Virus record (IMG/VR): IMGVR_UViG_3300027808_000017
Coordinates: 1 to 64,000 of that record
DNA length: 64,000 nucleotides
Source: a virus
Taxonomy: Duplodnaviria > Heunggongvirae > Uroviricota > Caudoviricetes
Reading direction: 5' to 3' (one strand)
The position numbers were made by a program, and so were the translations under genes. Below are positions 1,703 through 62,971 of the stretch, piece after piece; positions within the stretch are counted from its first letter, which is position 1, and each line of letters begins with the position of its first letter. The notes under the pieces are model-generated. The model was not told the DNA's origin and did no database searches. It saw only the letters and a list, made by a program, of their open reading frames with translations.

Positions 1703-2121
1703 AATGGTTTTATATCATCAAGACTAGCCACAATGATACGCTAGGATTTGGAATTACTGCTCACTTATCTAAACGATTGGTTGATGGTTATTGCAATCCT
1801 AGCGCGGCAAAACAACAATTTTCAAAATTGTATTACGGAGAAAATCTGCATGTCAATCAATTAGAAAAATATATTAAACGTGTGTACAGTAGTAAACGAT
1901 TAAACTTTACTAACACACGTACCCGTAAACTTGAATGGATTGATCCAAAATATGATATTTCTATGCAAGAGTTGATTGAAGTGGTTGAGGATCGTATTGT
2001 AGGATATCCCTTACCGATTAGTCGTGTTAAGGGTAAATTCGTACCATACACACTTGATAATCCTGACGTATTTAGAACTATAACCGAAAATCCTGATTTG
2101 TTTTTAGAAGAAATCACTTGA
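1699..2121 (+). CDS. hypothetical protein
   Basis: 140-aa ORF, ATGA overlap with upstream gene. Confidence 0.45.
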   Translation: MKWFYIIKTSHNDTLGFGITAHLSKRLVDGYCNPSAAKQQFSKLYYGENLHVNQLEKYIKRVYSSKRLNFTNTRTRKLEWIDPKYDISMQELIEVVEDRIVGYPLPISRVKGKFVPYTLDNPDVFRTITENPDLFLEEIT

Positions 2122-2146
2122 CAATATTTAAATATACGTATATAAT
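2118..2146 (+). promoter_or_regulatory. sigma70-type promoter (TTGACA-17-TATAAT) immediately upstream of FEN gene
   Basis: TTGACA 2118-2123, 17-nt spacer, TATAAT 2141-2146; ATG at 2153 is only 7 nt downstream, implying a leaderless transcript. Confidence 0.5.
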
Positions 2147-2152
2147 ACACAC

Positions 2153-3163
2153 ATGACACACAAAACTTACGCACTCATTGATACCGCAAATACCTTCTTC
2201 CGTGCTAGACACGTTGCTAGTCGCAACTCTACATTAGAAGAAAAAATCGGCATGGCCCTACACTTGACACTTGCTAGTGTTAATCAAGCAGTAAGACGCT
2301 ATGGAATTGACCATGTTGTATTTTGCTTGGAGGGGAAATCGTGGAGGAAGGCAGTATACGGTCCTTACAAAAAAAATCGTGTGGTTGATGCAATGTCAGT
2401 CACTGAGGAAGAAAAAGAAGAATCGGCTATGTTTTGGGATACTTACGAAAAGTTTACCACATACATACGAGAGAAAACTAACGTCAGTGTACTCAGGCAC
2501 GAACGGGCTGAGGCTGATGATTTGATTGCCCGTTTTATCCATCTACATCCAAATGACACGCATTATATTATTAGCACTGATTCCGATTATGTTCAGCTTA
2601 TTACTGATAAAGTGTTCCAGTACAATGGAGTCGCAAATGAACTCATCACACTCTCCGGATATCTTAAAGATACGGGTAAGCCGATACTAGATAAGAAAAC
2701 TAAACAGCCTAAATTGTTAGAGGATCCACAGTACTTACTTTTTAAAAAATGTATGAGGGGAGACAGTTCCGACAACGTATTCAGTGCGTATCCGGGTGTG
2801 CGTGAAAAAGGTTCTAAGAATAAGGTTGGTTTGATTGAAGCATACGAAGATAGAATGAAGCAAGGTTTTTCGTGGAACAATCTAATGTTGCAACGCTGGC
2901 TGGACCACGAAAATGTCGAGCATCGGGTTAAAGATGACTATGAACGCAATCGTATGCTGATTGACTTAACTGCACAACCTGACGAGATTAAACAATTGGT
3001 TGATGAATCAATTCACAATGGTGTTCGTACAACTACAACATCTCAAGTTGGTATACACTTTATGAAATTTTGTAACAAATACGAATTGACTAAGCTCAGT
3101 GAACAATCAGAAACATATTCACGGTGGCTTAACAATCCCTATACAGGTGTACTCAATGGATAA
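2153..3163 (+). CDS. 5'-3' exonuclease / flap endonuclease (RNase H, T4 rnh / T5 D15-like)
   Basis: N-terminus YALIDTANTFFRA resembles FEN/PIN N-termini (LLLIDGNSLAYRAFFA-type), 336 aa, acidic clusters typical of FEN active site. Confidence 0.75.
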   Translation: MTHKTYALIDTANTFFRARHVASRNSTLEEKIGMALHLTLASVNQAVRRYGIDHVVFCLEGKSWRKAVYGPYKKNRVVDAMSVTEEEKEESAMFWDTYEKFTTYIREKTNVSVLRHERAEADDLIARFIHLHPNDTHYIISTDSDYVQLITDKVFQYNGVANELITLSGYLKDTGKPILDKKTKQPKLLEDPQYLLFKKCMRGDSSDNVFSAYPGVREKGSKNKVGLIEAYEDRMKQGFSWNNLMLQRWLDHENVEHRVKDDYERNRMLIDLTAQPDEIKQLVDESIHNGVRTTTTSQVGIHFMKFCNKYELTKLSEQSETYSRWLNNPYTGVLNG

Positions 3164-3359
3164 GAAAATTAGAATTAATTTAGCCGGCATTGATGAACTT
3201 GACGAACAAACATTGGGTATGTTGATTGACGGGCTTGTTGAACTATATCAAGAAAAATATGGATTAGATATTTTACTTGACGAACCAGACAAACCCGAGT
3301 ATGATGCAGAGAACTTGGATGTTGTAAAAGATTACTTGAAAAAATTTAGATTACAATGA
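3156..3359 (+). CDS. small highly acidic protein (possible DNA-mimic type)
   Basis: in-frame ATG 3156 (MDKKIRINL...) overlapping end of FEN gene; D/E-rich 67 aa. Confidence 0.35.
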   Translation: MDKKIRINLAGIDELDEQTLGMLIDGLVELYQEKYGLDILLDEPDKPEYDAENLDVVKDYLKKFRLQ

Positions 3360-3838
3360 ATGAGAAAATAACTTATTATAAAAAAGTGGGTCGTAGATAC
3401 AGGGCCGTGTATGAGTACGACCAAAAACTTAGTGATGCATTACCAAAAGGTACTCATCTAATACAGGTTTATCCAGGTGGAAAATTAACACGTTACAATA
3501 TAAACCCTGCACATGCACCAATGATTGCGGCTGGTCGTGTAGCAGAGGATAAGATTAGTGAGGTAATTAGAAAAGCCACTGACATGCGTCCTGCTAGTAA
3601 AGAAACAAAATTAACAGAAGAACAAATACGTTGCTGGAATGAACTAAGCAAAGCGTTTGGTGAAGATAACCACGCATTACAATGGCCCAGTGCTAGGGAA
3701 GCCTGTGAGGAAGCAGTCAAGGCAATGCAAGAGGAAGCAGAAAAACTACTAGCTGTGCCAGCAGTTAGAAAAGCCTATGAACATTTCTTGTTTGTAGCAG
3801 AATTAACCAAGGATACTAAAAATGAATCTAATAGCTAA
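3356..3838 (+). CDS. hypothetical protein
   Basis: 160-aa ORF, ATGA overlap. Confidence 0.45.
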   Translation: MNEKITYYKKVGRRYRAVYEYDQKLSDALPKGTHLIQVYPGGKLTRYNINPAHAPMIAAGRVAEDKISEVIRKATDMRPASKETKLTEEQIRCWNELSKAFGEDNHALQWPSAREACEEAVKAMQEEAEKLLAVPAVRKAYEHFLFVAELTKDTKNESNS

Positions 3839-4283
3839 ACCAATTATTAAAAATCAATATTGGGTAGTCACTGATGGTGACAAAAAAGTTGGTAATGTTA
3901 TTCAAGAGGGTAGTGAATACAAAGTTAAACTCAACAACAAAACTGAACTCTATGATAGCACCAAGGCTATTGAAAAACTTAAGCATATAGAATTTGAGAA
4001 ACTTGCAAAGGTCAAACCCAAGGACACTAGCCCGCCCTTTGCAGTCTTCCCAACAAGTAGGAATAAAATCTATAACAGCATATTAGATGTCAAGCGTAAG
4101 TTACATTTGTACACTACTACCCCAAAAAGCAAGTGTTACTATGTTGCTGGTTGGTTTGCTATCAAGACCGGTGCTGAGTATGTTGCTACTTTTTGTCCTA
4201 AATACATATTTGTTCAACGGTATAATTACAAAGGACCGTTTAACTCTGAGGTCGAAGCAAATAGTAGCATAAATACTCTATGA
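3822..4283 (+). CDS. hypothetical protein
   Basis: 153-aa ORF. Confidence 0.45.
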   Translation: MNLIAKPIIKNQYWVVTDGDKKVGNVIQEGSEYKVKLNNKTELYDSTKAIEKLKHIEFEKLAKVKPKDTSPPFAVFPTSRNKIYNSILDVKRKLHLYTTTPKSKCYYVAGWFAIKTGAEYVATFCPKYIFVQRYNYKGPFNSEVEANSSINTL

Positions 4284-4468
4284 ATCAAATAAAAAAATTT
4301 ATTGATAAAATAACGGTCATAGAAGGACGTCAAGCACGGGAAGTTGTACTTACACTCAATGATGCCAAAGAATTACGTGATGAAATTATGAAAATTCTAT
4401 TGGATAATCGTGAGTACAATAAAGAACCCGAAACTATTAAAGTAGTGATGCAGGGCGGTAAATGGTAA
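4280..4468 (+). CDS. hypothetical protein
   Basis: 62-aa ORF, ATGA overlap. Confidence 0.4.
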   Translation: MNQIKKFIDKITVIEGRQAREVVLTLNDAKELRDEIMKILLDNREYNKEPETIKVVMQGGKW

Positions 4469-4472
4469 ATTA

Positions 4473-4766
4473 ATGAGCAGAACACAACCCAAAGTTATAT
4501 TAGAAATAACAGATAAAGTCACATACAAATGTGACCAAATTGTAGAAGCTGCAGGTATATGGGCTGTGTTTTATGACGGGCAACCAATTAACTTAAAAGC
4601 ACAACATGCCTACGATAGTGAGAGTGTCCCAAAGTATAAAAAGACCAGTTTCAGTAATCCCGGTCATGCAAGAAACCTGTGTCGTAAATTAAACGCACAA
4701 TTTAAATCAGATAAATTCAGTGTCGTGTTTATGAACAACGGTACTAAAGTTTATCCTGATGACTAA
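4473..4766 (+). CDS. hypothetical protein
   Basis: 97-aa ORF. Confidence 0.45.
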   Translation: MSRTQPKVILEITDKVTYKCDQIVEAAGIWAVFYDGQPINLKAQHAYDSESVPKYKKTSFSNPGHARNLCRKLNAQFKSDKFSVVFMNNGTKVYPDD

Positions 4767-5157
4767 ACCCTCATATAAAGAAATTATTACCGAGGCAGTT
4801 GTAAATCAATTGCCAACAGGATTTGAGGTCTTGAAAGAAGATGCATTAAAGACATGGTGGTTTACTGGTCAGAGTAGTGACGTATTAAGATTAAGCGAAA
4901 CCGGTGATGTGAATTTTCGCATAGCACAAATTGAATTTTATCAATATGATTTTACACCCAAAACTGAAGATAGTTATTATCGGTACATGAGTGACTTGGG
5001 GAAGAAAATACGTTGCCCCTATTTTTTAGGTGTAAATAAAGTTGAAGGAAAGAAAAGTAAACCATACATAAGATTATATGATAGCAAGATTGCTATGATG
5101 ATTAGCTTATATGGGAACTTGGACAGTTATTTAAAATCAGTGAGGATACGAAAATGA
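4759..5157 (+). CDS. hypothetical protein
   Basis: 132-aa ORF. Confidence 0.45.
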   Translation: MTKPSYKEIITEAVVNQLPTGFEVLKEDALKTWWFTGQSSDVLRLSETGDVNFRIAQIEFYQYDFTPKTEDSYYRYMSDLGKKIRCPYFLGVNKVEGKKSKPYIRLYDSKIAMMISLYGNLDSYLKSVRIRK

Positions 5158-5330
5158 CAGAAGAAAAGAAAAGTAAGAACCCATTTGTGAATTTGGCTAA
5201 TGAAGCCAAAAAGAACAATAATGAACTTCACCCTGGATTGGGCAAAGCACCAAAGAAACAAGGACCAAAATTTAATACAAAAGGTTTTGGTGGTGCAAGT
5301 GTAATAAGACGGACAGGTCGTGGTGGATAG
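5154..5330 (+). CDS. small Lys-rich protein (58 aa, not in ORF track)
   Basis: ATG 5154 overlapping TGA of upstream gene (ATGA); MTEEKKSKNPFVNLANEAKK...; ends TAG 5328-5330. Confidence 0.35.
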   Translation: MTEEKKSKNPFVNLANEAKKNNNELHPGLGKAPKKQGPKFNTKGFGGASVIRRTGRGG

Positions 5331-5389
5331 TGTCAACGGAATCAATGCCTAAGGCGTTATATATAAATAATTTAACAAAGGAAACTAAA

Positions 5390-5584
5390 ATGAAACAACT
5401 CATCGTAATTATCATGACCACATTTGCATTAACAGCATTTGCCGCAGAACCAGCAACGGCTCCTGCGCCAGCGGCAGCACCTGCTAAAGACAGTAAAATG
5501 AAATTAGCTAAAAAGAAAGACCATAGCAAAGATAAAAAGGTTAAAAAGGACGCCACCAAAAGTCCCAGTAAACCAGCTAAGTGA
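5390..5584 (+). CDS. secreted Lys/Ala/Pro-rich protein
   Basis: start MKQLIVIIMTTFALTAFAAEP (signal peptide) with RBS AAAGGAAAC; C-terminal PAPAAAPAKD...KKVKKDATKSPSKPAK. Confidence 0.5.
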   Translation: MKQLIVIIMTTFALTAFAAEPATAPAPAAAPAKDSKMKLAKKKDHSKDKKVKKDATKSPSKPAK

Positions 5585-5777
5585 TGCTGAGGACGAGGAT
5601 GATGACGAATCATCTAGTCCAGACATAGTAGCGCATCGTGGTTATAGTCGTCCAAAGATTATTAACCATGAGTCTGATACTGATAACTTATCGGATCATG
5701 TAAAATTTAGGTTGTTTCTTGCTAGGAATTTAGCAATGAAAAAGTTTAGAGAAAAACGTAGTCAGGCATAAATATTA

Positions 5778-6737: not shown

Positions 6738-6756
6738 TACTTTTAGTTTCAAAAGA

Positions 6757-6782
6757 AGCTCCGCTAGTCGGGGCTTTTTTTT
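6757..6782 (+). terminator. rho-independent terminator
   Basis: GAAGCTCCG..CGGGGCTT stem followed by T9. Confidence 0.6.
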
Positions 6783-6850: not shown

Positions 6851-7123
6851 ATGACCCAAGTTTATGATGCACTGAGCGAAAGCCAAAAACGTGACATTCG
6901 CATGTATGGCGTGACCGAAGCCGAGATGAAAGAGGCTGTAGAACAAAGTATTACTTTTCGTCATAGTGGTCCTGCTATGATGGCAGCTAGCCTGATGAGT
7001 GATTGTCAGGAAATGATTGCACATGACAACGGCGGATCGTATGATTTCATGGTTATCGAAGATGTTCGCCAAGCACTGAATCGTGCTAAGTGGATCCTCT
7101 TTGAATACTGTGACAAAAGGTAA
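6851..7123 (+). CDS. hypothetical early protein
   Basis: 90 aa, downstream of family promoter. Confidence 0.5.
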   Translation: MTQVYDALSESQKRDIRMYGVTEAEMKEAVEQSITFRHSGPAMMAASLMSDCQEMIAHDNGGSYDFMVIEDVRQALNRAKWILFEYCDKR

Positions 7124-7176: not shown

Positions 7177-7206
7177 ACTTGTATTGATTGATTAAAGGAG
7201 CTAGTT

Positions 7207-7443
7207 ATGAAGGTAAAACTTTTTGTTACAGGTAGTCAGAATTACATGTATTTCAAAAACAAACTTCCTACTAGGCGTTGGGATTACTGTGAAACACCCC
7301 GCAATGTGACTATTATCCCTGATCCGGTCAACGTCTATCAAGACGGTGAGTATGGTTTTGTGACAGTTTTTGGTCGTAAGATTTTTGTCAAATGTGACGG
7401 AAGTCATTGGGAAATCGTTGGTGCTGAGAAGCCCAAAACTTGA
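7207..7443 (+). CDS. hypothetical early protein
   Basis: 78 aa. Confidence 0.5.
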   Translation: MKVKLFVTGSQNYMYFKNKLPTRRWDYCETPRNVTIIPDPVNVYQDGEYGFVTVFGRKIFVKCDGSHWEIVGAEKPKT

Positions 7444-7468
7444 CAATAAATGGATTAGGGTATATAAT
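7440..7468 (+). promoter_or_regulatory. sigma70-type early promoter (family member)
   Basis: TTGACA (overlaps stop of upstream gene)-17-TATAAT; UTR AGACTCTTAGACAGTAAAGAAAAGGAAACGAA. Confidence 0.65.
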
Positions 7469-7500
7469 AGACTCTTAGACAGTAAAGAAAAGGAAACGAA

Positions 7501-7878
7501 ATGTCAAACGAATTAAAATCTTGGGAAGAAATGTCTGCACTAGAGCAGGCCCAATGTACATATTGGGATATGTACAAGGATGCTTACGGCGTTCGCCCCC
7601 GCGGTATTGACACTTCTGATTGGACCCTTAGGGATTTTGAAGCAGAGTTTGCTTCATTGGCTACTGCTATTGAACGTATGGAAACTCTACGTAAAATTGC
7701 TGAGGCAGAGACTATCGCCAAATTTGAGCAACACGTGACCAACACTATATGCATGGGTGCTCGGAATCGTGAGACCGCACTTAATTGGATCATGGATGCT
7801 AGCAACGCCAATGGTGACTGGGAGTACTTTTGTTTTATTGAAGGGTTACCTTATAGCTACTTCAGAAAAGCGGCCTAA
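7501..7878 (+). CDS. hypothetical early protein
   Basis: 125 aa. Confidence 0.5.
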   Translation: MSNELKSWEEMSALEQAQCTYWDMYKDAYGVRPRGIDTSDWTLRDFEAEFASLATAIERMETLRKIAEAETIAKFEQHVTNTICMGARNRETALNWIMDASNANGDWEYFCFIEGLPYSYFRKAA

Positions 7879-7880
7879 GG

Positions 7881-7909
7881 TTGACAATAAATAGATTTGG
7901 GTATATAAT
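7881..7909 (+). promoter_or_regulatory. sigma70-type early promoter (family member)
   Basis: TTGACA-17(ATAAATAGATTTGGGTA)-TATAAT. Confidence 0.65.
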
Positions 7910-8396: not shown

Positions 8397-9125
8397 ATGC
8401 CTGGATTTGTAGATGTTACTGGTTGGTCTAAACAAGAAATTCAACGTCTTGGTCACGAGGATGACGATACACCTGATACAAAAACAGTATTCCGTGTTAA
8501 AAAGGAACCTAATATTAATTTCCAAGCTGATGATGTTTGGGCGGCTGCTTGTCAGGCTCAACAAGTCAATGGCAGTTATGTTAAACTCGGGGATGAAACT
8601 CAAAACACCAATCGTCAAATTATGTTTAGACTGTTGGCAGACACTACCCAAATTACCGATGAAAATCGTGTACAGGGTACAAAGGTTCGTCAATACTATC
8701 AAGCATTCACTTTCAAAATCCTTAAGGGAATTGCATTAAATGATTTTGATAACAATGCAATGCTTATCAGTAATCGCAATGTTATTACCAAACAGTATGA
8801 CGTAGCAGTCATTGCCAGCTTGCCACAAAGCTATGAACGAGGTTCTAAGCGAGCCAGTGTTACTCAACGGATTAAATTTGCTACTGGTGGTTATATCGGT
8901 CAACCCAGTGACAAAGTTACATTGACTATTGAACTATTGAAAGATGTTTATAGTCAGAAGTGGAATACAAATTATTTTACAGGTATTACAACTGATGACC
9001 AAATAGTATTTTTTGCTTATAATGGTACTGGTAAATTAGATATCGGTGATACATACACAATTCAGGGTACTGTTAAAGCGCACCGCGACAACAGTACGCA
9101 ACTAAATCGGGTAAAGTTTGTTTGA
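8397..9125 (+). CDS. hypothetical protein
   Basis: 242 aa; RBS AAGGAATAATC ATG. Confidence 0.5.
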   Translation: MPGFVDVTGWSKQEIQRLGHEDDDTPDTKTVFRVKKEPNINFQADDVWAAACQAQQVNGSYVKLGDETQNTNRQIMFRLLADTTQITDENRVQGTKVRQYYQAFTFKILKGIALNDFDNNAMLISNRNVITKQYDVAVIASLPQSYERGSKRASVTQRIKFATGGYIGQPSDKVTLTIELLKDVYSQKWNTNYFTGITTDDQIVFFAYNGTGKLDIGDTYTIQGTVKAHRDNSTQLNRVKFV

Positions 9126-9684: not shown

Positions 9685-11022
9685 ATGAGTGCAAGTTGGA
9701 TTAATAAATTAAACGAGAGCGACAGCCGCCTTCACAAAGAAGATGTGATTTTGCAGGCGCTTGAAGCAAGTGTCCTAGGCAGTCGTAATAGTCAGATTTT
9801 CTTGGGCTTTACTAACGCCTGTTATAATCCCTATGTTACATTTGGTATTCGTCAAGTGCCCGATACTGTAGGTATTGTTGACGCAGAAAATCCCTGGGAT
9901 GAATTCAATACGTTGATGTATCAACTTGGCCAGCGCAAGTTGACAGGTCATGCCGCACGTGATGCTGTACAAAATATGTCTGAACGATTTGACAGTATTG
10001 AATGGAACACATTCCTAGCACCTGTATTGCGTAGAGACTTACGTGCGGGTATCAGTGATAAGACAATCAATAAGATTTGTAAAGGTACTGAATATGAAGT
10101 ACCAATCTTTGGTTGTCAATTAGCAACTAACAGTGAAGGTCGTCCAGAGATGCAAGGTATCAAACGTCTTGAGCCTAAACTTGACGGCGTTCGTGTGTTG
10201 TTGACCGCTATCCCTGATGAAGATGGCAATATTGTCACTATTTGTTTCAGTCGCAATGGTAAACAGTTTGACAACTTTGGTCATATTGAAAATCAAGTGC
10301 GTGAGAACTTTGTAAAACTTACTCATAAAGCCGCAAGTAGTAACTTAAGCATGGGCTTTGTAATGGATGGTGAAGTGATTGGTAATACATTCCAAGAACT
10401 TATGCGACAAGCACGCCGCAAGACTGACGTACAAGCAGAGGATAGTGTGTTTAATGTATTTGACATTATACCAGTAGCAGCCTTCCGTGAGGGTCATTGG
10501 AATGCACAACTACACAAACGCATTACTATTTTAGAAGATATGCGTAGTATCATTGATGACATGCCTAATGTTGAATTGTTACCACATATCATGGTTGACT
10601 TGGATACAGCGGCAGGTAAAGATCAATTAGAACGATATGCCAAGGATCAAGTTAATGCAGGATTTGAAGGCATTATGATTAAAAATGTTGATGCGCCATA
10701 TGTTTGTAAACGTAGTACAGATTGGATGAAGTGGAAACCAGTTATTACCGTTGACTTAGAAGTTATTGGTATTGAAGAAGGTACCGGAAGAAATAAAGGA
10801 CGACTTGGAGCACTGGTTTGTGAGGGTCAAGATGACGGAAAGCACATTACTGTTAATGTTGGTAGTGGGTTCTCTGATACAGATAGAGATAGTTATTGGA
10901 ATGATAGCAATCACATCATTGGACGCACAGCCGAAATCTTATGTGATGTAGTGACACAAAATCGTGATGGTACATATAGTTTGCGCTTTCCACGATTTGT
11001 TAGATTTAGGGATGATAAATGA
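9685..11022 (+). CDS. ATP-dependent DNA ligase
   Basis: adenylation motif I (KxDG) in EPKLDGVRVLL; 445 aa; GGAG RBS. Confidence 0.85.
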   Translation: MSASWINKLNESDSRLHKEDVILQALEASVLGSRNSQIFLGFTNACYNPYVTFGIRQVPDTVGIVDAENPWDEFNTLMYQLGQRKLTGHAARDAVQNMSERFDSIEWNTFLAPVLRRDLRAGISDKTINKICKGTEYEVPIFGCQLATNSEGRPEMQGIKRLEPKLDGVRVLLTAIPDEDGNIVTICFSRNGKQFDNFGHIENQVRENFVKLTHKAASSNLSMGFVMDGEVIGNTFQELMRQARRKTDVQAEDSVFNVFDIIPVAAFREGHWNAQLHKRITILEDMRSIIDDMPNVELLPHIMVDLDTAAGKDQLERYAKDQVNAGFEGIMIKNVDAPYVCKRSTDWMKWKPVITVDLEVIGIEEGTGRNKGRLGALVCEGQDDGKHITVNVGSGFSDTDRDSYWNDSNHIIGRTAEILCDVVTQNRDGTYSLRFPRFVRFRDDK

Positions 11023-11228
11023 ACGAGCGAATTAAAGAACTTATCGAACAGGCTACTTGTTTCAAAGAAGGCCTTACTGAAGGATTATACGACATTGAAA
11101 TTTTTGACAAAGAAAAGTTTGCCGATTCGCTTGTATGGGAATGTATGAAAATCTGTGAAGATGTTATGAAAAAAGATAACTCTGCACTTGCCTGTTGGAG
11201 TGCAATCAAAGGAACATTTAGGAGTTGA
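11019..11228 (+). CDS. small protein, MNxRIKEL paralog family (copy 1)
   Basis: MNERIKELIEQATCF...; shares N-terminus with ORFs at 13466, 13774 and 62100-62303(-). Confidence 0.5.
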   Translation: MNERIKELIEQATCFKEGLTEGLYDIEIFDKEKFADSLVWECMKICEDVMKKDNSALACWSAIKGTFRS

Positions 11229-12335: not shown

Positions 12336-13130
12336 ATGAAACGTATTTTTACTCTCTCTATTCTCGCTGCCGCAATTTTGGCAACTGGCTGTACACGTAT
12401 TGAAACCGGCGAGGTTGGTGTGCGAGTTGGATTTGACCGACAGATTCAGCCAGGTGAATTGTTGCCTGGATCATTCAATCAAACCATGATAGGTGATGTG
12501 CTTACATTCCCTATCAAGGACGTGAATGTGGTGCTGGAGAATATGACTCCTGTGGCCAAAGACAATTCAACCATGAAAGACTTTGATGCTGTGGTTGTTT
12601 ACAACATCAACCCACAACAAGTGAGTGAATTGTATGCAACCAAGAACAAGAGTTTCCACGCTGAGTTCAAAGGCGACACCTATGTGATGTACAACTACAT
12701 TGTGCAAAATGCTCGCAACGCCATCTACAAAGCCACACGTAAATATGAAGCATTAGACATGGCAGACAATCGTACTGAAATGGAAAACTATATCAAGGAT
12801 GAAATTACACGAAACCTTACTGAAGAAAAACTAGATGGCTCAATCACCATCAATCAAGTTATGGTTCGTAGTGTAATTCCTGCTGACAGTGTTGTTGAAA
12901 GTGCAAACGCCTTGGTTCGTAGCAAAAACGAATTGAAGCAAAAAGAAGTTGAAGTAAAAACTGCCGAAGCAGAAAGTCGCAGAATGGCAGCACTGGCCAA
13001 CAACTCAGGTGCTAGTATTGCGTTCATGCAAGCACAGGCTATGTTGAATATTAGTGAAGGTATCAAGAACGGTCAAGTGCAGACAATCGTTGTACCTAGC
13101 AACTTTAACGCATTGATGATGAACAAGTAA
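12336..13130 (+). CDS. SPFH/band-7 (prohibitin-like) lipoprotein
   Basis: lipobox ILATGC; TGEVGVRVGFDRQIQPGELLPG resembles SPFH domain start; C-terminal coiled coil. Confidence 0.55.
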   Translation: MKRIFTLSILAAAILATGCTRIETGEVGVRVGFDRQIQPGELLPGSFNQTMIGDVLTFPIKDVNVVLENMTPVAKDNSTMKDFDAVVVYNINPQQVSELYATKNKSFHAEFKGDTYVMYNYIVQNARNAIYKATRKYEALDMADNRTEMENYIKDEITRNLTEEKLDGSITINQVMVRSVIPADSVVESANALVRSKNELKQKEVEVKTAEAESRRMAALANNSGASIAFMQAQAMLNISEGIKNGQVQTIVVPSNFNALMMNK

Positions 13131-13274
13131 TATGTGGGCGTTGATTATTGCACTTACAATGGATGTAGCACCTTTTGAGATAAAGTTTACTCAATTGGCT
13201 GAGGTCAAAACATATCAAGAATGTAGAGACCTTTCTAAGATATTAAAAGACCGTGGCTTGAATGCACACTTGTT

Positions 13275-13469
13275 TTGTGTACAGCAACAATGAGTGGCTT
13301 AGGCATCATACAAGAAGAATCACCCCAAGCATGTCAAATGTGCGGGGTGATTGATGAATGTCGTCCTTATGGTCCTAATAACGAAGAAATTTGTTTTGAC
13401 TGTGCTATGAAGGATGAGGAAACTACTGAGCGCAAAATGACAACTTATATTTTTGGTGAACAACAATGA
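13275..13469 (+). CDS. small zinc-ribbon protein
   Basis: CQMCG...CRPYG...CFDC: two CxxC pairs. Confidence 0.45.
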   Translation: MCTATMSGLGIIQEESPQACQMCGVIDECRPYGPNNEEICFDCAMKDEETTERKMTTYIFGEQQ

Positions 13470-13777
13470 ACCAACGAATTAAAGAACTGTTAGATGAAGC
13501 CACTGTTTATGCACTGCATGAAACTAAAGATGCGGTTGACTTTTTAGATAATCCTGTAACAAAACAACAACGTGAGCGTCAATTGGAAATATTTGCTGAG
13601 GCTATTATTCGTGAATGTTGCATGGCATTACATCCTATGTTGCGTGACATGATTAGTCGTGGTCAAGGTCGTGAACTTATTCTACAACATTTTGGTATCA
13701 ATCCAAGAGAAATTACAACTTTTATGCTTGATAGAAGTATTGCACAGATGGAAAAGCAAATAGAGGTTAAAGAATGA
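13466..13777 (+). CDS. small protein, MNxRIKEL paralog family (copy 2)
   Basis: MNQRIKELLDEATVY...FAEAIIRECCMAL. Confidence 0.5.
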   Translation: MNQRIKELLDEATVYALHETKDAVDFLDNPVTKQQRERQLEIFAEAIIRECCMALHPMLRDMISRGQGRELILQHFGINPREITTFMLDRSIAQMEKQIEVKE

Positions 13778-13998
13778 ACCAGCGAATGAAAGAACTTGCT
13801 AAACAACTAGGTTACAATGTTAACTTTAAACCATCAGATGATGAAACAGATAGAGAATATCAGGTTGTTAGCAATGATTTTGCTGAAAAATTCGCTGAAT
13901 TGATTGTTCGGGATTGTGCCCTTACTGCTGGCCTAATGGAACATGGAGGCCGGAAAGGCATCGGTGCACAAATATTAGATAATTTTGGAGTTAAATAA
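13774..13998 (+). CDS. small protein, MNxRIKEL paralog family (copy 3)
   Basis: MNQRMKELAKQLGY...FAELIVRDCAL. Confidence 0.5.
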   Translation: MNQRMKELAKQLGYNVNFKPSDDETDREYQVVSNDFAEKFAELIVRDCALTAGLMEHGGRKGIGAQILDNFGVK

Positions 13999-14195
13999 TG
14001 TTTTTAACATGGGTTTTAGTAATATCAACATTCACCCCCGGTGGTGATTTAGTTAGTGAATATAAAGAAGGTCCTTTTCAATCTAAAAAAGAATGCATTG
14101 CATCAAAAAAAGAATTGAATAATCCACCTGCTTTAATGGGCTTGAAATTTAAAGGCAAGTGTGTTAGATTAAAAGTAGAAAACGAAAATGAGTAA
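13998..14195 (+). CDS. small secreted protein
   Basis: hydrophobic N-terminus MFLTWVLVISTFTPGG. Confidence 0.4.
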   Translation: MFLTWVLVISTFTPGGDLVSEYKEGPFQSKKECIASKKELNNPPALMGLKFKGKCVRLKVENENE

Positions 14196-14388
14196 CCTAG
14201 TCGGCAAGTCATACATTTTTGAAGATGGTGGCAAGATTGAAGTAATTCAAGTCAAACTAAGAGAAGATGGATTATGGGTGCATTATTTAATTTCAATGAA
14301 CTCTAGTCTACCTAGAAAACTAGTTATGAAACACGGTGAATTTATGACAAATTTTAAACATTTATTTGGAGAAGATGATGGCGTATAA
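14188..14388 (+). CDS. hypothetical protein
   Basis: 66 aa. Confidence 0.4.
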   Translation: MSNLVGKSYIFEDGGKIEVIQVKLREDGLWVHYLISMNSSLPRKLVMKHGEFMTNFKHLFGEDDGV

Positions 14389-14608
14389 AACAATTTATAC
14401 AGAAGTTGAAGTTGATGTTGACCTTTCAGAGTTTGAGACCGATGACCTACTTGACGAATTAGCAAGTCGTAGTTCACTCCCAATGGAAGAAGATTTCCAT
14501 GGTAAAGAAATACTTGAAGCCATTTATCATAAACGTAGAATGGGCCGCACTGATTATGAAAAAGAATTAGACCAATTGATTTGGAATAGTCTAGGCAAAA
14601 TGTTATAA
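14366..14608 (+). CDS. small acidic protein
   Basis: 80 aa, D/E-rich. Confidence 0.4.
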   Translation: MEKMMAYKTIYTEVEVDVDLSEFETDDLLDELASRSSLPMEEDFHGKEILEAIYHKRRMGRTDYEKELDQLIWNSLGKML

Positions 14609-14642
14609 TACATCGTGTAATCAACTATGAATAAATACTAGG

Positions 14643-16304
14643 ATGTTCTCACGAATCTTTTCACTCAGCAATGCCACTCTTTTAGTGGCATTGGCACTTA
14701 GTACTATCGCCGCTTGGTATAGTATTGTTGGTCTAACCGCTATCTTTGCAAGTGCGGTTATACCTATTATCATCATGGGCTCGGCACTTGAACTTGCAAA
14801 AATTATAACAACAGTCTGGTTGCGTAAGTATTGGGATCGTTGTACTTGGGTAATGAAAGTATATCTTGTTCCGGCTGTTATTGCACTTGCAGTATTAACA
14901 AGCATGGGTATTTTTGGTTTCTTATCTAAAGCACACTTAGACCAAGGTGTTATAGGTGGTGATAGTATTGCCCAAGTACAAATTTTAGATGAAAAAATAA
15001 AAACAGCAAAAGAAAATATAGAGTCCAATCGTAAGGCTCTTAAGCAAATGGATGAGGCTGTAGATCAAGTCATGGCACGTTCAGATTCAGAAAAAGGTGC
15101 AGATAAAGCAGTATCTGTTCGTAGAAGTCAGACAAAAGAACGAGTTAGATTACAAAATGAGATTATAGCTGAACAGACAAAAATTGCTAAACTTAACGAA
15201 GAACGAGCTCCTATTGCTTCAGAAGTACGTAAAGTTGAAGCAGAAGTTGGTCCAATCAAATACATTGCGGCATTTATTTATGGAGATAATCCAGATGCTA
15301 ATTTACTTGAACGTGCAGTACGATGGGTAATTATTTTACTTGTTATTGTATTTGACCCTCTTGCAATTATTTTAGTGATTGCGGCTAATCAGAGTAAAGA
15401 TTGGGATAAAGAAATTGAAGATGATAAAAATGCTATGGCTATCATCCCACCCAAAGAAGAAGATACGAGACCCTTTACCGAAGAAGAAATAACAGCATTA
15501 GATAAACCGGTAGAAGAAGTTGATATAGTTCCTGCACCAGAAACTGAACCAAAAGCAACTTGGGCTTTTCCATCTGACCCACAACCCGAATCAGTTGACC
15601 ATTATGTAGCAAACAAATTTACTGAATTTGATCCTAGATATTTGGTTACTAAAGTTATCACTGAAGAAGAATCTAAAGATATAGTGGCTTCTCCGGCATA
15701 CCCTGAAATGTATATCGATTATCAAATAATAGAAGATGTTATTGAAGAAGATTTACCACCTGTCACAAGTTGGGTAGAAATTCCTGAACCAGAAGTAATT
15801 GTAGCAGAGGAAGAAATCAAAGTAGACGATTCTCCTCCTTACGAAGGTATTAGAGATTTAAAAACAGGCCAATGGATACAAACAGGACCTGCAATTATTG
15901 ATCCAACAATAAAATCTACTATGGGTTTTAAAGATTTGGGCGGAGGGTATGTAGAATTTGAAGGCAAGAGAATGGCACTTCATGTTTTAAGAGATAAGCG
16001 TCCTGATTTGTTTGCTATCAGAGAAGACAATCCAAGACAAGTAAAAATTACTTTTGGATCCAAATCAGTTACTGTTGGTTTGATAGGTGATACGTTTATT
16101 CGTACCGATGCTATTCCCCATCGTGTTTTCAAAAGCAATGGTGAAAAATGGATAGAGATTAACAAGAACACAACAGCTACTTACTTAAGTAACACTAATT
16201 ACTTACAACATCTAATGGAAAAAATAGCAACTGGTGAATACGAACCCGACCTTTTAACCGAGTTGGAACAAGAGGCCATTTCAAATCATTTGAATTCAGC
16301 TTGA
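14643..16304 (+). CDS. multi-TM membrane protein with coiled coil and long acidic C-terminal domain
   Basis: 553 aa; ~3 N-terminal TM helices, coiled coil, further TM (VIILLVIVFDPLAIILVIAA), acidic tail. Confidence 0.55.
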   Translation: MFSRIFSLSNATLLVALALSTIAAWYSIVGLTAIFASAVIPIIIMGSALELAKIITTVWLRKYWDRCTWVMKVYLVPAVIALAVLTSMGIFGFLSKAHLDQGVIGGDSIAQVQILDEKIKTAKENIESNRKALKQMDEAVDQVMARSDSEKGADKAVSVRRSQTKERVRLQNEIIAEQTKIAKLNEERAPIASEVRKVEAEVGPIKYIAAFIYGDNPDANLLERAVRWVIILLVIVFDPLAIILVIAANQSKDWDKEIEDDKNAMAIIPPKEEDTRPFTEEEITALDKPVEEVDIVPAPETEPKATWAFPSDPQPESVDHYVANKFTEFDPRYLVTKVITEEESKDIVASPAYPEMYIDYQIIEDVIEEDLPPVTSWVEIPEPEVIVAEEEIKVDDSPPYEGIRDLKTGQWIQTGPAIIDPTIKSTMGFKDLGGGYVEFEGKRMALHVLRDKRPDLFAIREDNPRQVKITFGSKSVTVGLIGDTFIRTDAIPHRVFKSNGEKWIEINKNTTATYLSNTNYLQHLMEKIATGEYEPDLLTELEQEAISNHLNSA

Positions 16305-16324
16305 CCCAAAATCATCAAAAACAA

Positions 16325-16353
16325 TTGACACTAAATCATTTTGGTGCTATACT
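16325..16353 (+). promoter_or_regulatory. sigma70-type promoter
   Basis: TTGACA-17-TATACT. Confidence 0.5.
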
Positions 16354-16387
16354 ATGTTTATTGTTCAACTACACACAGAGGTTAATT

Positions 16388-17017
16388 ATGAAACTTAAAT
16401 TATCAGTACTTGTCATTGCATTGTCACTGACCGCATGTTCTAGTATGAAGACCGGTAACGGTACTAATTCTAGTGTCCCGATCGTCAATCAAAAGCTATC
16501 TACGTCATTCGTAGCTGAGGGTGTTAAGATTGAAACTAAATGTAGTTGGTCTATGTTCGGCAAAGATGAATGTCAATTAGTTGCTATTGAGGCAATTGGT
16601 ACAGCACCTACATTTGGTAACACTACGTCAAATCGTAAGAATGCACTTACCCGTGCTCAAATGGCAGCTGAACGTCAAGTAACTGAATTTTTGCAAAAAG
16701 AAGTCACCACTAGTCGTGTTCAAAACACTATTGCCAAGAACATTGAAAAGGCTTCTGACAAAGTTAAGTCAGGTAAGACTGATGATAGCGCAGTTGAATT
16801 GACTGACAAAGAGGCAAGTACTATTAATTTGCGTGAAAATCACAATGACACCCTTGTGTCATTGACTGAAAACATTCAAACATCAGCCAAAGCAATTCTC
16901 AAAGGCTTCATCAAGACTGACGAACGAGTTATTGGTGATCAGGAAGTTTCTGTGACTATGCGGTGGGACATAGACAGTGAACTGGCTCGCAATCAACTTG
17001 CTAAAGCAATGCGATGA
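16388..17017 (+). CDS. lipoprotein
   Basis: MKLKLSVLVIALSLTACSS lipobox; RBS GAGG. Confidence 0.55.
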   Translation: MKLKLSVLVIALSLTACSSMKTGNGTNSSVPIVNQKLSTSFVAEGVKIETKCSWSMFGKDECQLVAIEAIGTAPTFGNTTSNRKNALTRAQMAAERQVTEFLQKEVTTSRVQNTIAKNIEKASDKVKSGKTDDSAVELTDKEASTINLRENHNDTLVSLTENIQTSAKAILKGFIKTDERVIGDQEVSVTMRWDIDSELARNQLAKAMR

Positions 17018-18048
17018 AATACATATTGCTTGCGGTGATGCTGGCCCTAACAGCATGTGCTAGCACTACTGAGGCTGTAAGAACTTCAAGCGATAGTCCC
17101 GATGCTGGGGTCATACGTGTTCTCGGCACAGGATCAACTAAAGAAGAGGCAAAGAATAACGGCTTCACTACTGCTATCGAAATTGCTGTTGGTTCTGCAA
17201 TTCTTTCACACAAAGATGTCCGTTCCGATAAACTTATACGTGATGACATAGTGAAATACAATGCAGGTTACGTTGATAATTATAAAATCATTGACGAGAC
17301 AAAAACAAGCGGTGGTTACTCATTGTTGATGGATGTTCATGTTAAGAGCAGTCGCATACATGAACGATTATTGAGTGGGGGCGGTGACGAGAAAAATGTC
17401 AACGGTGATAAATTGGCTACTCAATATGACACATATCGTGCCCAACAAGAATCAGCCGATAAACTCATTGATGTGTTAATACAAGATTGGCCCGAAAAAG
17501 CCTTTACTATCAAACAAGGTAAACAAGAATTTAGTATTAATGAAAAACGTGTGTCTGTATTACGAATTCCAATTGAAATGAATATGAACTATAGCTATAT
17601 TATGGCATTGGATGAGTCTCTTAAAAAGATTAACCAAAAGAAAACATATTCAGATTTAAAAATTGGTATTGCAGTTAAAGCACCCGATGATTGGGTATTC
17701 GGTAGAACCAATGGATATTTCTTTGATGACATTCAACGTATAAAACAATTCCAACAAGGGTTTAATGATAACTTTTGGATTCAAGTTCATTTAAAAGATA
17801 TTAATGGTAATTTACTGTATTCTCAGTGTTTTGAACATGGAAGAAGTTTTTCATACCAAACAACTAAGGCATTTATTTTACAAGGTAATAACTCCGTAGA
17901 TTCTAACATTGAAATTGAACTAAATTCAAAACTATCCAAGACATTGCGCCAAGCATATAGTGTAGAAATGGTTCCCTCTAGAGTTTGTATCAACAAAATA
18001 TACGAAACTATACCTCTGCTAAAATGTCCCCCGCTAAACAAAAAATGA
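17014..18048 (+). CDS. lipoprotein
   Basis: MKYILLAVMLALTACAS lipobox; ATGA-coupled. Confidence 0.55.
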   Translation: MKYILLAVMLALTACASTTEAVRTSSDSPDAGVIRVLGTGSTKEEAKNNGFTTAIEIAVGSAILSHKDVRSDKLIRDDIVKYNAGYVDNYKIIDETKTSGGYSLLMDVHVKSSRIHERLLSGGGDEKNVNGDKLATQYDTYRAQQESADKLIDVLIQDWPEKAFTIKQGKQEFSINEKRVSVLRIPIEMNMNYSYIMALDESLKKINQKKTYSDLKIGIAVKAPDDWVFGRTNGYFFDDIQRIKQFQQGFNDNFWIQVHLKDINGNLLYSQCFEHGRSFSYQTTKAFILQGNNSVDSNIEIELNSKLSKTLRQAYSVEMVPSRVCINKIYETIPLLKCPPLNKK

Positions 18049-18059
18049 TAAGTAATAAT

Positions 18060-19470: not shown

Positions 19471-19573
19471 CCTAAATAGTTGTATATATTGCACAATCAT
19501 GTAAAATATATACTGTAGTAGATGCCTAACGGGTCTATTACAACACAATCTTGCTTTAACAAAGGAGAAAATT

Positions 19574-21490: not shown

Positions 21491-21554
21491 ACTTTAGATC
21501 GGGTGCCGCATTGCGGGCCCGACAATTATTCTTGCTTTATTAAGGAGATATAAA

Positions 21555-22001: not shown

Positions 22002-22024
22002 TATAATAGCATATCGTAAATACA

Positions 22025-22052: not shown

Positions 22053-22063
22053 AAAGAGAAAAA

Positions 22064-23944: not shown

Positions 23945-23963
23945 AAGAGATAAATACATTACT

Positions 23964-54380: not shown

Positions 54381-54409
54381 AATAAAAGTATTATATACCC
54401 GAATCCATT
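54381..54409 (-). promoter_or_regulatory. sigma70-type early promoter (family member, minus strand)
   Basis: revcomp TTGACA-ATAAATGGATTCGGGTA-TATAAT. Confidence 0.65.
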
Positions 54410-54573
54410 TATTGTCAAATTTTGGCTAATTTCTTTTTAGTGTGTCAGAGTTCTAGGCCTATATCAGAATCGGTCCTAGAGCACCTGACACACAAATGAA
54501 TACTCAAGTATTCATTTTTATTAAGAAGTTATATATAAAAAAACCCTACAAGGTTAATACTTTACTTTTAGTT

Positions 54574-56960: not shown

Positions 56961-57203
56961 TTAGATGTAAAAACATTCACCACGCTTGTCGGCACCGATA
57001 GCATCATAGACACATTCACGAACCATAGTGTCCATTGCCTCACCGAACATGTCAGGATTAGAATCGGCCAAGTCACGCAATGCCTTGAAAGTCTGTTTCC
57101 ATGACAGATTTTGACTTTTGGCAGTTGTCACAATACCGTGAACAGCCATGTTACCTTCATCAGAGTACATAGCATAAGTGATATCAAGTGTGATTTTAGT
57201 CAT
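56961..57203 (-). CDS. hypothetical early protein
   Basis: 80 aa. Confidence 0.5.
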   Translation of the reverse strand: MTKITLDITYAMYSDEGNMAVHGIVTTAKSQNLSWKQTFKALRDLADSNPDMFGEAMDTMVRECVYDAIGADKRGECFYI

Positions 57204-57235
57204 TTCGTTTCCTTTTCTTTACTGTCTAAGATTCT

Positions 57236-57264
57236 ATTATATACCCAAAGCCATTTATTGTCAA
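57236..57264 (-). promoter_or_regulatory. sigma70-type early promoter (family member, minus strand)
   Basis: promoter+UTR (to ATG 57203) nearly identical over ~60 nt to the + strand copy at 7440-7503. Confidence 0.7.
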
Positions 57265-57281
57265 CTTTGGGTATGTTGTTT

Positions 57282-62103: not shown

Positions 62104-62303
62104 TCTTCAACTCCGAAAACTCTGAAATGTTTTCCAATAATTACACAGCCTCTAAATTCACCATTATCCGCTAGAATCTTGATACATTCCATCACAATCA
62201 ACTCGGCAAACTTTTGACATTCTGGCATGTCCCAGTGTCCAATGCCAAACATATCCGTTGTGTATCCAGCCTGTTCAGCAAGTTCTCGAATTCGTTCGTT
62301 CAT
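62100..62303 (-). CDS. small protein, MNxRIKEL paralog family (copy 4)
   Basis: MNERIRELAEQAGYTTD...FAELIVMECIKIL. Confidence 0.5.
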   Translation of the reverse strand: MNERIRELAEQAGYTTDMFGIGHWDMPECQKFAELIVMECIKILADNGEFRGCVIIGKHFRVFGVEE

Positions 62304-62641
62304 TACTTTACTCCAAATGTGTTCAATGCTGGTTGCAGTGTGTTAATCAATTCAGTCTCGCGGGCATGAGCAGGACGCTTGCCTCTCACAATCTCCACGA
62401 CACCAAATACAAATCGCTCGGCACCTTGTTCACGCAAGGCACGTGACAAACCCCAATCTTTGTTCTCAGTCATAGCACGTTGCATGTGTTTTTGCATACG
62501 ACGGCGTAATGTGCGAAATACATTACCCTTGAATGAAACAGCAGTCAGACCAATGTAATACTCAAGTGTTACAGTGTCTTGAATGTAGTAGATGACTTGA
62601 TTGCGGTCTGTTCTACGTTTGCGGTTGATTTTCGAGTTCAT
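62303..62641 (-). CDS. putative GIY-YIG nuclease
   Basis: VIYYIQDTVTLEYYIGLT...RTLRRRMQKH...ARETELINTLQPALN fits GIY-x10-YIG...R...H...E...N spacing. Confidence 0.45.
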   Translation of the reverse strand: MNSKINRKRRTDRNQVIYYIQDTVTLEYYIGLTAVSFKGNVFRTLRRRMQKHMQRAMTENKDWGLSRALREQGAERFVFGVVEIVRGKRPAHARETELINTLQPALNTFGVK

Positions 62642-62647
62642 GTAAGT

Positions 62648-62676
62648 ATTATATACCCAATGTGATTTATTGTCAA
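62648..62676 (-). promoter_or_regulatory. sigma70-type early promoter (family member, minus strand); leaderless
   Basis: revcomp TTGACAATAAATCACATTGGGTA TATAAT then ACTTAC ATG. Confidence 0.6.
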
Positions 62677-62699
62677 CTATTGAGTATACTACTTTCAGT

Positions 62700-62927
62700 T
62701 TACTTTACAAACCCAGCAAACATTTCAATGTCATACCAAGCTACTGCTTTAGTATTCATTTCATAAACAAGCACAGGGAATGCTTGAGTATTAACTTTAT
62801 CAAAGTTAACAAGTTTCTCAAAATTAGATTGACACAGTTCTTCATCAGACTGGTCCTCAAAAGTCACAAATGCTTTGTTAGTGTTCACAAACTCATCAAT
62901 GTTGTAAGACATAATAGGCCCTTTCAA
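62700..62927 (-). CDS. hypothetical early protein
   Basis: 75 aa; RBS AAAGGG. Confidence 0.5.
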   Translation of the reverse strand: MKGPIMSYNIDEFVNTNKAFVTFEDQSDEELCQSNFEKLVNFDKVNTQAFPVLVYEMNTKAVAWYDIEMFAGFVK

Positions 62928-62942
62928 ATGTTTAAGATGCTA

Positions 62943-62971
62943 TTGTATACCCAATTTGATTTATTGTCAAC
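62943..62971 (-). promoter_or_regulatory. sigma70-type early promoter (family member, minus strand)
   Basis: revcomp TTGACAATAAATCAAATTGGGTA TACAAT. Confidence 0.6.

Follow-up and report, generated by a model that had tools for sequence, protein, structure and literature searches.

Gene content of the window and enrichment of near-consensus promoter motifs

The 64-kb stretch of DNA analysed here (positions 1 to 64,000 of the IMG/VR record IMGVR_UViG_3300027808_000017, from a Caudoviricetes virus; hereafter the window) contains a family of dispersed repeats built around predicted near-consensus sigma70-type promoters, which is the subject of this work. The window has a GC content of ~ 37%, and its genes are arranged in blocks lying on the plus strand at 1–36.9 kb, on the minus strand at 37.1–41.7 kb, on the plus strand at 41.8–52.75 kb and on the minus strand at 52.8–64 kb. 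Among them are genes for DnaK, ClpX, ClpP, an SPFH protein, an ATP-dependent DNA ligase and a 5'-3' exonuclease/RNase H, together with a dCMP deaminase, a class II aldolase and a GNAT-ParB fusion protein. The window holds neither structural genes nor tRNA genes.

Near-consensus sites were defined as pairs of hexamers with no more than one of their 12 positions deviating and with a spacer of 17 nucleotides (nt). The window contains 22 of them, compared with 1.6 +/- 1.3 (maximum 6) in 100 dinucleotide shuffles, and the exact sequence TTGACA-N17-TATAAT is present in 12 copies against 0.03 expected. Every other spacer length in the 14–20 nt range gave 0–4 sites, which corresponds to the background level. 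Moreover, 13 copies of the extended core TTGACAnTAAATnnnnTnGGGTATAyAAT were counted where none would be expected, and all 22 sites have the orientation of the local gene block. A preliminary description of this DNA had listed 20 such promoters on both strands, all with a 17-nt spacer. The 20 sites are indeed present, the spacer holds in all copies and the motif count exceeds the shuffled-sequence control, as proposed; only two coordinates need shifting (54409 to 54418 and 62971 to 62970). The list itself was incomplete, since P53723 (minus strand; TATCAT with TGn, kept in 13 relatives) and the weak P12247 (plus strand; TATACT, not kept in relatives) had been overlooked. The GGGTA placed directly 5' of the -10 hexamer is found at 13 of the 20 listed sites and is missing elsewhere, TGn occurring instead where the -10 is TATACT or TATCAT. 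Likewise, a short open reading frame (ORF) follows most sites, the ORFs behind core copies measuring 43–155 amino acids (aa), and this does not apply to P2118, P12247 and P16325 (336, 264 and 209 aa); at P9122, small ORFs follow one another up to the DNA ligase gene. The proposed pair of divergent cassette regions has to be abandoned, as the plus-strand cassettes (6.8–9.2 and 27.5–28.6 kb) and the minus-strand cassettes (53.7–63.0 kb) converge. Finally, describing the repeats as promoters only left out their continuation through a conserved leader to the ATG, a subset with the ATG at +1 and the putative role as gene-shuffling junctions.

Architecture of the repeated unit

Alignment of the sites delimits a repeated unit of 55–76 nt, which extends from a few bases 5' of the -35 hexamer through to the start codon and is composed, in this order, of the -35, a conserved spacer (ATAAAT....TTTGGGTA), the -10, an A/T-rich discriminator, a leader, a ribosome-binding site (RBS) and the ATG. 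The leader is 23–28 nt long, ends in AAAGGAG or AAAGGA and exists in two mosaic classes, class A (ACTTGTATTGATTGATTAAAGGAG) and class B (AGAATCTTAAACAGTAAAGAAAAGGA), with chimeric forms at P56688 (B start, A end) and P57818 (A start, B end). Structured leaders are ruled out, the leaders being predicted as unstructured (z ≥ 0). An ATG preceded by an RBS lies 26–35 nt after the -10 in the window, and its position peaks at 29–34 nt among 503 unique family promoters from the window and related loci.

Cassette copies are found in many places on both strands, with 80–98% identity over 55–76 nt, and near-identical inverted copies lie ~ 30–50 kb apart. As an example, positions 7433–7508 match the inverted 57196–57271 with 91% identity over 76 nt, and positions 28044–28099 match the inverted 57210–57265 with 98% identity over 56 nt, the ORFs served being unrelated in both cases. 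Of ten tested ORFs behind core copies, five had matches solely to PHROG families without known function, and the other five had no match. At six sites (P2118, P7440, P9122, P56688, P58263 and P62970), the upstream ORF (8397–9125 at P9122 and 62967–63407 at P62970) has as its stop codon the TGA contained in TTGACA, and genes are therefore packed tight against the cassettes. No Rfam family matches the repeats. The sites, together with a terminator-like hairpin, are as follows:

P2118, 2118..2155, plus strand: TTGACA-N17-TATAAT without ATAAAT or GGGTA; heads the 336-aa 5'-3' exonuclease/RNase H gene
Terminator-like hairpin, 6753..6782, plus strand: AGCTCCGCTAGTCGGGGCT followed by T8, just 5' of P6792; heads the 6.8–9.2 kb array
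P6792, 6792..6853, plus strand: TGn-TATACT, class A leader; 90-aa ORF at 6851–7123
P7148, 7138..7209, plus strand: GGGTA-TATAAT, class A leader; 78-aa ORF
P7440, 7440..7503, plus strand: class B leader; 125-aa ORF (phrog_21968, function unknown)
P7881, 7881..7941, plus strand: class A leader; 90-aa ORF
P9122, 9122..9184, plus strand: TATACT with neither GGGTA nor TGn; 43-aa ORF, then small ORFs up to the DNA ligase gene
P12247, 12247..12338, plus strand: TATACT; 60 nt 5' of the SPFH/Band-7 gene (264 aa); weak candidate that may be a chance match
P16325, 16325..16390, plus strand: TGC-TATACT, extended -10; 209-aa putative lipoprotein, then ClpX and DnaK
P27560, 27560..27620, plus strand: GGGTA-TACAAT; 66-aa ORF
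P28045, 28045..28109, plus strand: class B leader; 90-aa ORF
P28563, 28563..28628, plus strand: TTGACG, class B leader; 155-aa ORF (phrog_1987, function unknown)
P42958, 42958..43021, plus strand: atypical, with perfect hexamers and spacer GTAATTGGGCTTTAGTC; a 9-aa ORF opens at +1, then a 129-aa ORF at 43019 without RBS
P53723, 53634..53723, minus strand: TTGACA-N17-TGT-TATCAT, hairpin and T-run at about +1, 58-nt leader; 127-aa ORF
P54223, 54159..54223, minus strand: class B leader; 136-aa ORF (phrog_10415, function unknown)
P54418, 54358..54418, minus strand: class A leader; 43-aa ORF
P56688, 56624..56688, minus strand: chimeric leader; 90-aa ORF
P57264, 57201..57274, minus strand: class B leader; 80-aa ORF
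P57648, 57582..57648, minus strand: TGA-TATACT, extended -10, class A leader; 100-aa ORF
P57818, 57761..57818, minus strand: chimeric leader; 45-aa ORF
P58263, 58225..58263, minus strand: TGC-TATACT; 50-aa ORF, its ATG starting at the 8th nt after the -10
P62676, 62639..62676, minus strand: GGGTA-TATAAT; 112-aa ORF at 62641–62303, its ATG starting at the 7th nt after the -10
P62970, 62910..62970, minus strand: GGGTA-TACAAT, class B-like leader; 70-aa ORF

Spread and conservation of the cassette in relatives

The exact extended pattern was found in at least 120 IMG/VR stretches. Many loci (L numbers below) are homologous to the window at 65–93% nucleotide identity, one of them (L100) being identical to positions 62112–64000, and ~ 1 Mb of loci yielded 494 near-consensus promoters, whose spacers and leaders have the features described above. 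The carriers would by these features be a clade of uncultivated and environmentally widespread large phages. Conservation was measured only at the five window promoters that do not match the fetch pattern, and the identities in orthologues were:

-35 hexamer: 0.89–1.00
-10 hexamer: 0.82–0.94
60 nt upstream: 0.34–0.56
ORF: 0.65–0.75

The hexamers are thus better conserved in relatives than the genes they serve and than their flanks. At P53723, the 13 orthologues keep the -35 at 0.99 and the -10 at 0.91; at P9122, conservation is confined to close relatives. Promoter and leader classes also differ between orthologues: those of P6792 have a fully conserved -35 (1.00) with promoter and leader class swapped, and those of P57648 carry GGGTA-TATAAT promoters instead.

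Gene shuffling at the cassettes

Homology between the window and the related loci ends preferentially at the cassettes. Indeed, of the 455 homology endpoints, 82 are at most 5 nt away, on either side, from the position where a -35 begins, which corresponds to an endpoint density of 7.45 per nt at the -35 edge against a background of ~ 0.15 (~ 50-fold). As the sharpness of this peak is partly an alignment effect, the upstream neighbour in relatives was compared at the protein level, a check that only partly offsets this effect. Among 88 promoter-edge starts, 24 had the same upstream neighbour, 35 had a gene from elsewhere in the window and 29 had nothing homologous, meaning that the neighbour had changed in 73% of the cases.

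Individual loci display several kinds of rearrangement. In L009, cassettes from 56.6 kb (minus strand), 28.1 kb (plus strand) and 54.2 kb (minus strand) of the window are strung together, and in L001 and L002 the plus-strand cassettes of 27.5–29.1 kb stand in line with the minus-strand genes of 60.8 to 53.3 kb; the whole P54418 cassette is absent from these two loci. L066 has ~ 175 nt in place of window positions 7201–7881 (ORF78, P7440 and ORF125), and this replacement is bounded by a leader on one side and by the next -35 on the other. In L077, the upstream flank of P54418 is joined to the downstream gene of P62676, with the switch at the promoter. In addition, orthologous ORFs carry differing promoter and leader classes among phages. 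As a counter-case, the homologues of 14.7–15.4, 18.0–19.6, 21.5–22.5 and 25.5–26.1 kb keep the window order in several loci.

Promoter sub-classes around the -10

Among the 503 family promoters, GGGTA precedes 189 and TGn 47 of the 361 TATAAT hexamers, 0 and 37 of the 61 TATACT hexamers, and 0 and 10 of the 11 TATCAT hexamers, the counts for GGGTA-TATAAT being inflated by the use of the promoter pattern itself to fetch the loci. The window has five sites of the TGn class (P6792, P16325, P57648, P58263 and P53723). In real sigma70 promoters, an extended -10 offsets a weaker hexamer. From these counts, TGn would take the place of GGGTA where the -10 is weaker, as a compensation inside the promoter. 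The TTT tract of the spacer places a T at -18, which fits the preference of sigma70 for this base via residue R451 (PMC3130263).

GGGTA itself is ruled out as an extended -10, since it reads G-15 T-14 and not T-15 G-14. It is also ruled out as the 3' arm of a stem in general: CCC is found upstream in 13% of the GGGTA promoters and in 16% of those without GGG, so that a stem does not account for its conservation. Both GGGTA and ATAAAT presumably have a role in the spacer. A literature search with GGGTATATAAT yielded nothing but minimal-promoter constructs used as reporters in eukaryotes.

Predicted leaderless genes

The ATG starts at the 7th nt after the -10, the expected +1, in the case of P2118 and P62676, and at the 8th nt in that of P58263, and none of the three has an RBS. 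The mRNAs of these genes are therefore predicted to be leaderless. Among the 503 family promoters, 50 have the ATG at the 7th nt, compared with 1–2 at adjacent offsets, and the 7th and 8th nt combined account for 15 families with 59 distinct proteins (≥ 40 aa), among them RNase H and, by their N-terminal motifs, DNA methyltransferase-like, deaminase-like and phosphoesterase-like proteins. This layout is kept in relatives: the TATAAT-N6-ATG spacing is found in 8 of 11 orthologues of P2118, the spacing of P58263 is kept in 8 orthologues (family of n = 10), the layout of P62676 is the same in a family of 20 members, and genes with the ATG at +1 are also found in L100 and many further loci. Homology of the P2118 gene to the RNase H of phage PA5oct begins at residue 4. 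P42958 is ruled out as a leaderless promoter, its +1 ATG opening merely a 9-aa ORF.

The ATG peak at the predicted +1 is the best in silico evidence for a start position of sigma70 type. The cI mRNA of phage lambda transcribed from PRM is leaderless, with the AUG at the transcript 5' end, 7 nt after the -10, and no RBS. The genes described here are alike in having the ATG directly 7 nt after the -10 without RBS; they differ in that the layout, as predicted from sequence geometry, recurs in at least 15 gene families of one phage clade.

Stem-loops and terminator-like elements

In a minority of copies, the TTTGGGTA element can pair with a 5' arm that immediately precedes the -35, and these stems show compensatory variants (CCCGAAT/ATTCGGG, CCAAAAT/ATTTTGG and CCCAATAC/GTATTGGG). 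Stems of at least 10 nt number 13 among 495 promoters, compared with ~ 2 by permutation. At P57264, a 10-bp stem (ATACCCAAAG/CTTTGGGTAT) surrounds the -35 (-14.5 kcal/mol, z -4.2), and at P7148 the 5' arm TACCCAAA pairs with TTTGGGTA, the -35 lying inside the stem-loop (-10 kcal/mol, z -2.6). The hairpin at 6753..6782 reaches -12.9 kcal/mol with a z of merely -1.0. The hairpin of P53723 shows compensatory changes in 3 of 5 predicted pairs among relatives, and a variant of this type in L116 reads CTGTGCTG-ATGG-CAGCACAG-TTTTT. The P53723 layout resembles the promoter-terminator form of the promoter-early stem-loop (PeSL) of T4-type phages, and its hairpin may stop read-through from upstream cassettes, with its own transcripts escaping. 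Note that a stem-loop is absent from ~ 18 of the 22 window copies, being present only at P7148, P57264, P53723 and P6792 (as the upstream terminator).

Interpretation and alternative explanations

We consider it likely that these repeats are portable expression cassettes, in which host sigma70-type promoters double as joints for gene shuffling. On entry of the phage DNA, unmodified host polymerase would bind the cassette promoters, transcription would begin at the predicted +1, and the small genes of unknown function would be transcribed singly or few together in what is presumably an early programme. Since the cassettes are 80–98% identical, scattered and present on both strands, the dispersed copies would also serve as homology patches, at which genes could be inserted, deleted, replaced, inverted or re-promotered, and an incoming gene would bring or gain a ready promoter, RBS and upstream stop codon. 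Recombination would then take place within the repeats, rather than junctions just being selected there. The sigma70-type appearance and the host-polymerase regulon of the preliminary description are supported by the non-randomness of the motif, the fixed distance to the start codon and the conservation of the hexamers, all properties of sequence. The natural reading would be that host RNA polymerase is captured to express small genes without known function, which matches T4, RB49 and PA5oct (PMC2988021, PMC2839356, PMC7318152).

Several points weigh against this interpretation. BLAST alignments tend to extend across a conserved island and to end at its border, which exaggerates the sharpness of the endpoint peak, and in the neighbour comparison some of the hits from elsewhere may be other cassettes in the 450-nt flank. 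The fetching of loci by the promoter pattern also introduced a bias to cassette-rich regions. Selection for rearrangements that preserve expression could alone pile junctions at promoters. Support for P12247 and P42958 as members of the family is poor, and no UP-element consensus was detected (the information content 5' of -40 is about zero). An inference of the host from DnaK was rejected, the 120 best matches all being metagenome contigs of phage-like size.

The closest competing explanation is that the repeats are only strong promoters, alike by selection and descent, which are not recombination substrates and where breakpoints coincide since breaks elsewhere would disrupt or silence genes. 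The clear purifying selection on the hexamers, the gathering of BLAST endpoints at the edge of any conserved island and the same neighbour kept at 24 of the 88 promoter-edge starts all fit this explanation. However, spacer and leader positions are conserved beyond what sigma70 recognition needs, opposite-strand copies 50 kb apart remain 91–98% identical over 56–76 nt before unrelated ORFs, leaders are mosaic or chimeric, promoter and leader classes differ before orthologous ORFs, and the context switch in L077 falls at the promoter itself. In addition, experiments on RB49 have demonstrated that its PeSLs, which follow the same design, give rise to mini-circles by recombination (PMC2839356). 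We thus regard a promoter-only role as unlikely, though serious enough to be kept in mind. It is quite unlikely, in our view, that ATAAAT, TTTGGGTA and the first 12–15 bases of the transcript constitute an operator, bound by a factor that the phage encodes or injects and that would boost the promoters, or shut them jointly at the close of the early phase, and make the family a true regulon. Diverged phages have indeed kept GGGTA, ATAAAT and the first part of the leader without a known need for sigma70 contact, GGGTA is kept regardless of a complementary arm and so is not mainly part of a stem, and the T4 factors Alt and Mod tune subsets of early promoters (PMC2988021). Nevertheless, no regulator was identified, the elements are not palindromic, and the TGn subclass has the same leaders without GGGTA, with orthologous positions switching between the two forms, which interchangeable polymerase-contact elements fit better; the T at -18 with its TTT tract is already explained by the sigma70 R451 contacts (PMC3130263).

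As dispersed repeats found on both strands and at rearrangement junctions, the cassettes could in principle also be ends of mobile elements, sites of packaging or replication, or sequences on which a site-specific recombinase acts, merely resembling the sigma70 consensus. Such an origin is scarcely credible for sites with perfect hexamers at exactly 17 nt and at no other spacing, always in the orientation of the genes, at a fixed distance to RBS and ATG, with a sharp ATG peak at the predicted +1 and with TGn offsetting weaker -10 hexamers. Moreover, they have neither terminal inverted repeats nor target duplications, no integrase or transposase was found among the 40 larger ORFs scanned, and Rfam gave no match. 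An extension of the cassette interpretation is that, beyond being passive homology patches, the copies act as attachment sites in an integron-like exchange of gene cassettes, the elements outside the hexamers (ATAAAT, TTTGGGTA and the first transcribed bases) being bound by a dedicated phage factor, either a recombination helper or a family-wide regulator, and leaderless translation being a second routine mode of expression; we give this extension only a small chance.

Comparison with known promoter systems

Cassettes of promoter and leader are already known from T4-type phages, namely as the PeSLs of coliphages RB49 and phi1, and related sets exist in nt-1/KVP40 and PST/T4 (PMC2839356, PMC4122927). 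Read directly from RB49, the PeSL layout is an A-rich tract, TTGACA, a spacer hairpin GGGG...CCCC, TATAAT, an ACACCCATACCGAAACGAA leader, AGGAGAATCAAA and ATG. The two systems share many perfect or near-perfect TTGACA-N17-TATAAT copies, a conservation going past the hexamers via a short leader to the RBS and ATG (checked in RB49), a location before small genes of unknown function in variable regions, and the coincidence with insertions, deletions and replacements between related phages. The minority of copies with a stem-loop (P7148, P57264), with a hairpin and T-run after the -10 (P53723) or with an upstream terminator (P6792) echoes the PeSL subclasses. In contrast, the spacer and leader sequences are unrelated (the RB49 spacer has GGGGnnnnnnnCCCC and its leader ACACCCATACCGAAACGAA), most copies here lack the stem-loop, which makes up the second half of a PeSL and defines it, the upstream sequence is usually coding instead of an A/T-rich tract, a leaderless subclass exists, and the present phage is not a recognised member of the Straboviridae. 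The element would therefore work like a PeSL, being by its sequence neither a homologue nor a full member of the PeSL family.

The T4 early 'uber' promoters combine UP, -35, TGn and -10 elements (PMC2988021), and the -35 of the PST/T4 pair is TTTACW (PMC4122927). Like these, the present family is large, with predicted very strong host-polymerase promoters and consensus information beyond the hexamers, and might out-compete host promoters right after infection, as is thought for T4. The -35 of T4 differs from TTGACA, and T4 joins UP and TGn in one promoter, whereas here there is no UP consensus and TGn accompanies mainly a sub-optimal -10; no Alt-like ADP-ribosyltransferase was seen in the window. 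The Pseudomonas jumbo phage PA5oct depends on host polymerase and has 32 TTGAC/TATAATA promoters near mapped transcript starts, its early transcripts coming from arrays of very small genes (PMC7318152). PA5oct, the closest cultured relative by RNase H (48.8% aa identity), has similar promoter boxes before small early genes; however, its first 50 kb (early region) contain 7 loose matches and no extended cassette, and no shuffling role is described for its promoters.

What is new here is the spread over an uncultivated clade, the evidence for a dispensable stem-loop, the alternation of GGGTA and TGn, and the recurrent design predicted to be leaderless. Our results suggest that the design of a cassette as shuffling joint, seen earlier in few cultured T4-type phages, extends to a widespread uncultivated clade and that the stem-loop is dispensable for the joint role. 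In practice, the cassette may help in annotating phage contigs from metagenomes, where it marks start codons and arrays of early genes, and the GGGTA-TATAAT and TGn-TATACT pairs with their conserved leaders provide a natural set of strong-promoter variants. The recurrent ATG at +1 suggests that leaderless translation would be routine in this clade, which would be unusual for phages that otherwise use a strong RBS.

Source phage and further observations

Neither a megablast of 6 kb of the window nor a blastn search with the cassette gave a match in 50,697 phage records. Among cultured phages, the closest matches are the jumbo phages PA5oct and XbC2 for RNase H (47–49% aa identity), and the Pelagibacter phage Mosig with XacN1-like jumbo phages for a 553-aa protein. 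DnaK homologues with 82–100% identity are found on many metagenome contigs of up to 361 kb. The source is probably an uncultivated large freshwater phage of jumbo type, to judge from these matches. Cellular-looking DnaK matches have 59–71% identity, the top one being of proteobacterial type, which is a weak hint to the host. Moraphages are large aquatic phages with DnaK, whose predicted hosts are Bacteroidota and whose DnaK clusters with Flavobacteriaceae (PMC12619734); in view of these hosts and this clustering, an assignment of the clade to the Moraphages was not adopted. The ligase, RNase H and dCMP deaminase are T4-like. T4-type late promoters are ruled out, since their motif TATAAATA is not enriched in the window and, with 4 copies against 8 expected, falls below expectation.

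A scan of a genome collection for the exact extended pattern returned only two contigs of metagenome-assembled genomes (MAGs), L126 (JAEZXR010000107.1, 128,580 nt, from a 'Bacillota' MAG) and L127 (CAIUKZ010000432.1, from a Lake Erken 'Bacteroidales' MAG), which are most likely mis-binned phage contigs.

The DnaK gene belongs to a proteostasis set on the plus strand (12336–26107):

12336–13130, plus strand: SPFH/Band-7 protein
17985–19283, plus strand: ClpX-like ATPase
19574–21490, plus strand: DnaK/Hsp70, full-length (864 bits)
25520–26107, plus strand: ClpP

SprT-like metalloprotease-domain ORFs are located at 23435–23944 (plus strand) and 38577–39095 (minus strand), the second being a weak match (E = 0.006). 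The GNAT-ParB fusion protein (46072–48663, plus strand) has 863 aa, with an N-terminal GNAT acetyltransferase domain and a ParB N-terminal domain, and tblastn found no match to it in deposited phage genomes. Other repeat families, none of them related to the promoters, are also present. Two tandem paralogous genes at 33999–35587 (plus strand; 266 and 254 aa) have 68% identity over 300 nt. Three small genes on the plus strand (11005–11057, 13452–13504 and 13760–13812) have in common the start ATGAAC.AGCGAAT.AAAGAACT, and two minus-strand genes share a conserved start region of 77 nt (37672–37748 and 39036–39112).

Beyond the left end of the window, two contigs identical to it (L121 and L122) carry at their positions 1700–5640, ~ 5–9 kb upstream of that end, genes for GTP cyclohydrolase I and a PTPS/QueD-like protein, and a faint radical-SAM match. 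These genes are accompanied by a nucleotidyltransferase, a glycosyltransferase, an epimerase and UvdE, and they suggest a synthesis of 7-deazaguanine and possibly a modified phage DNA.

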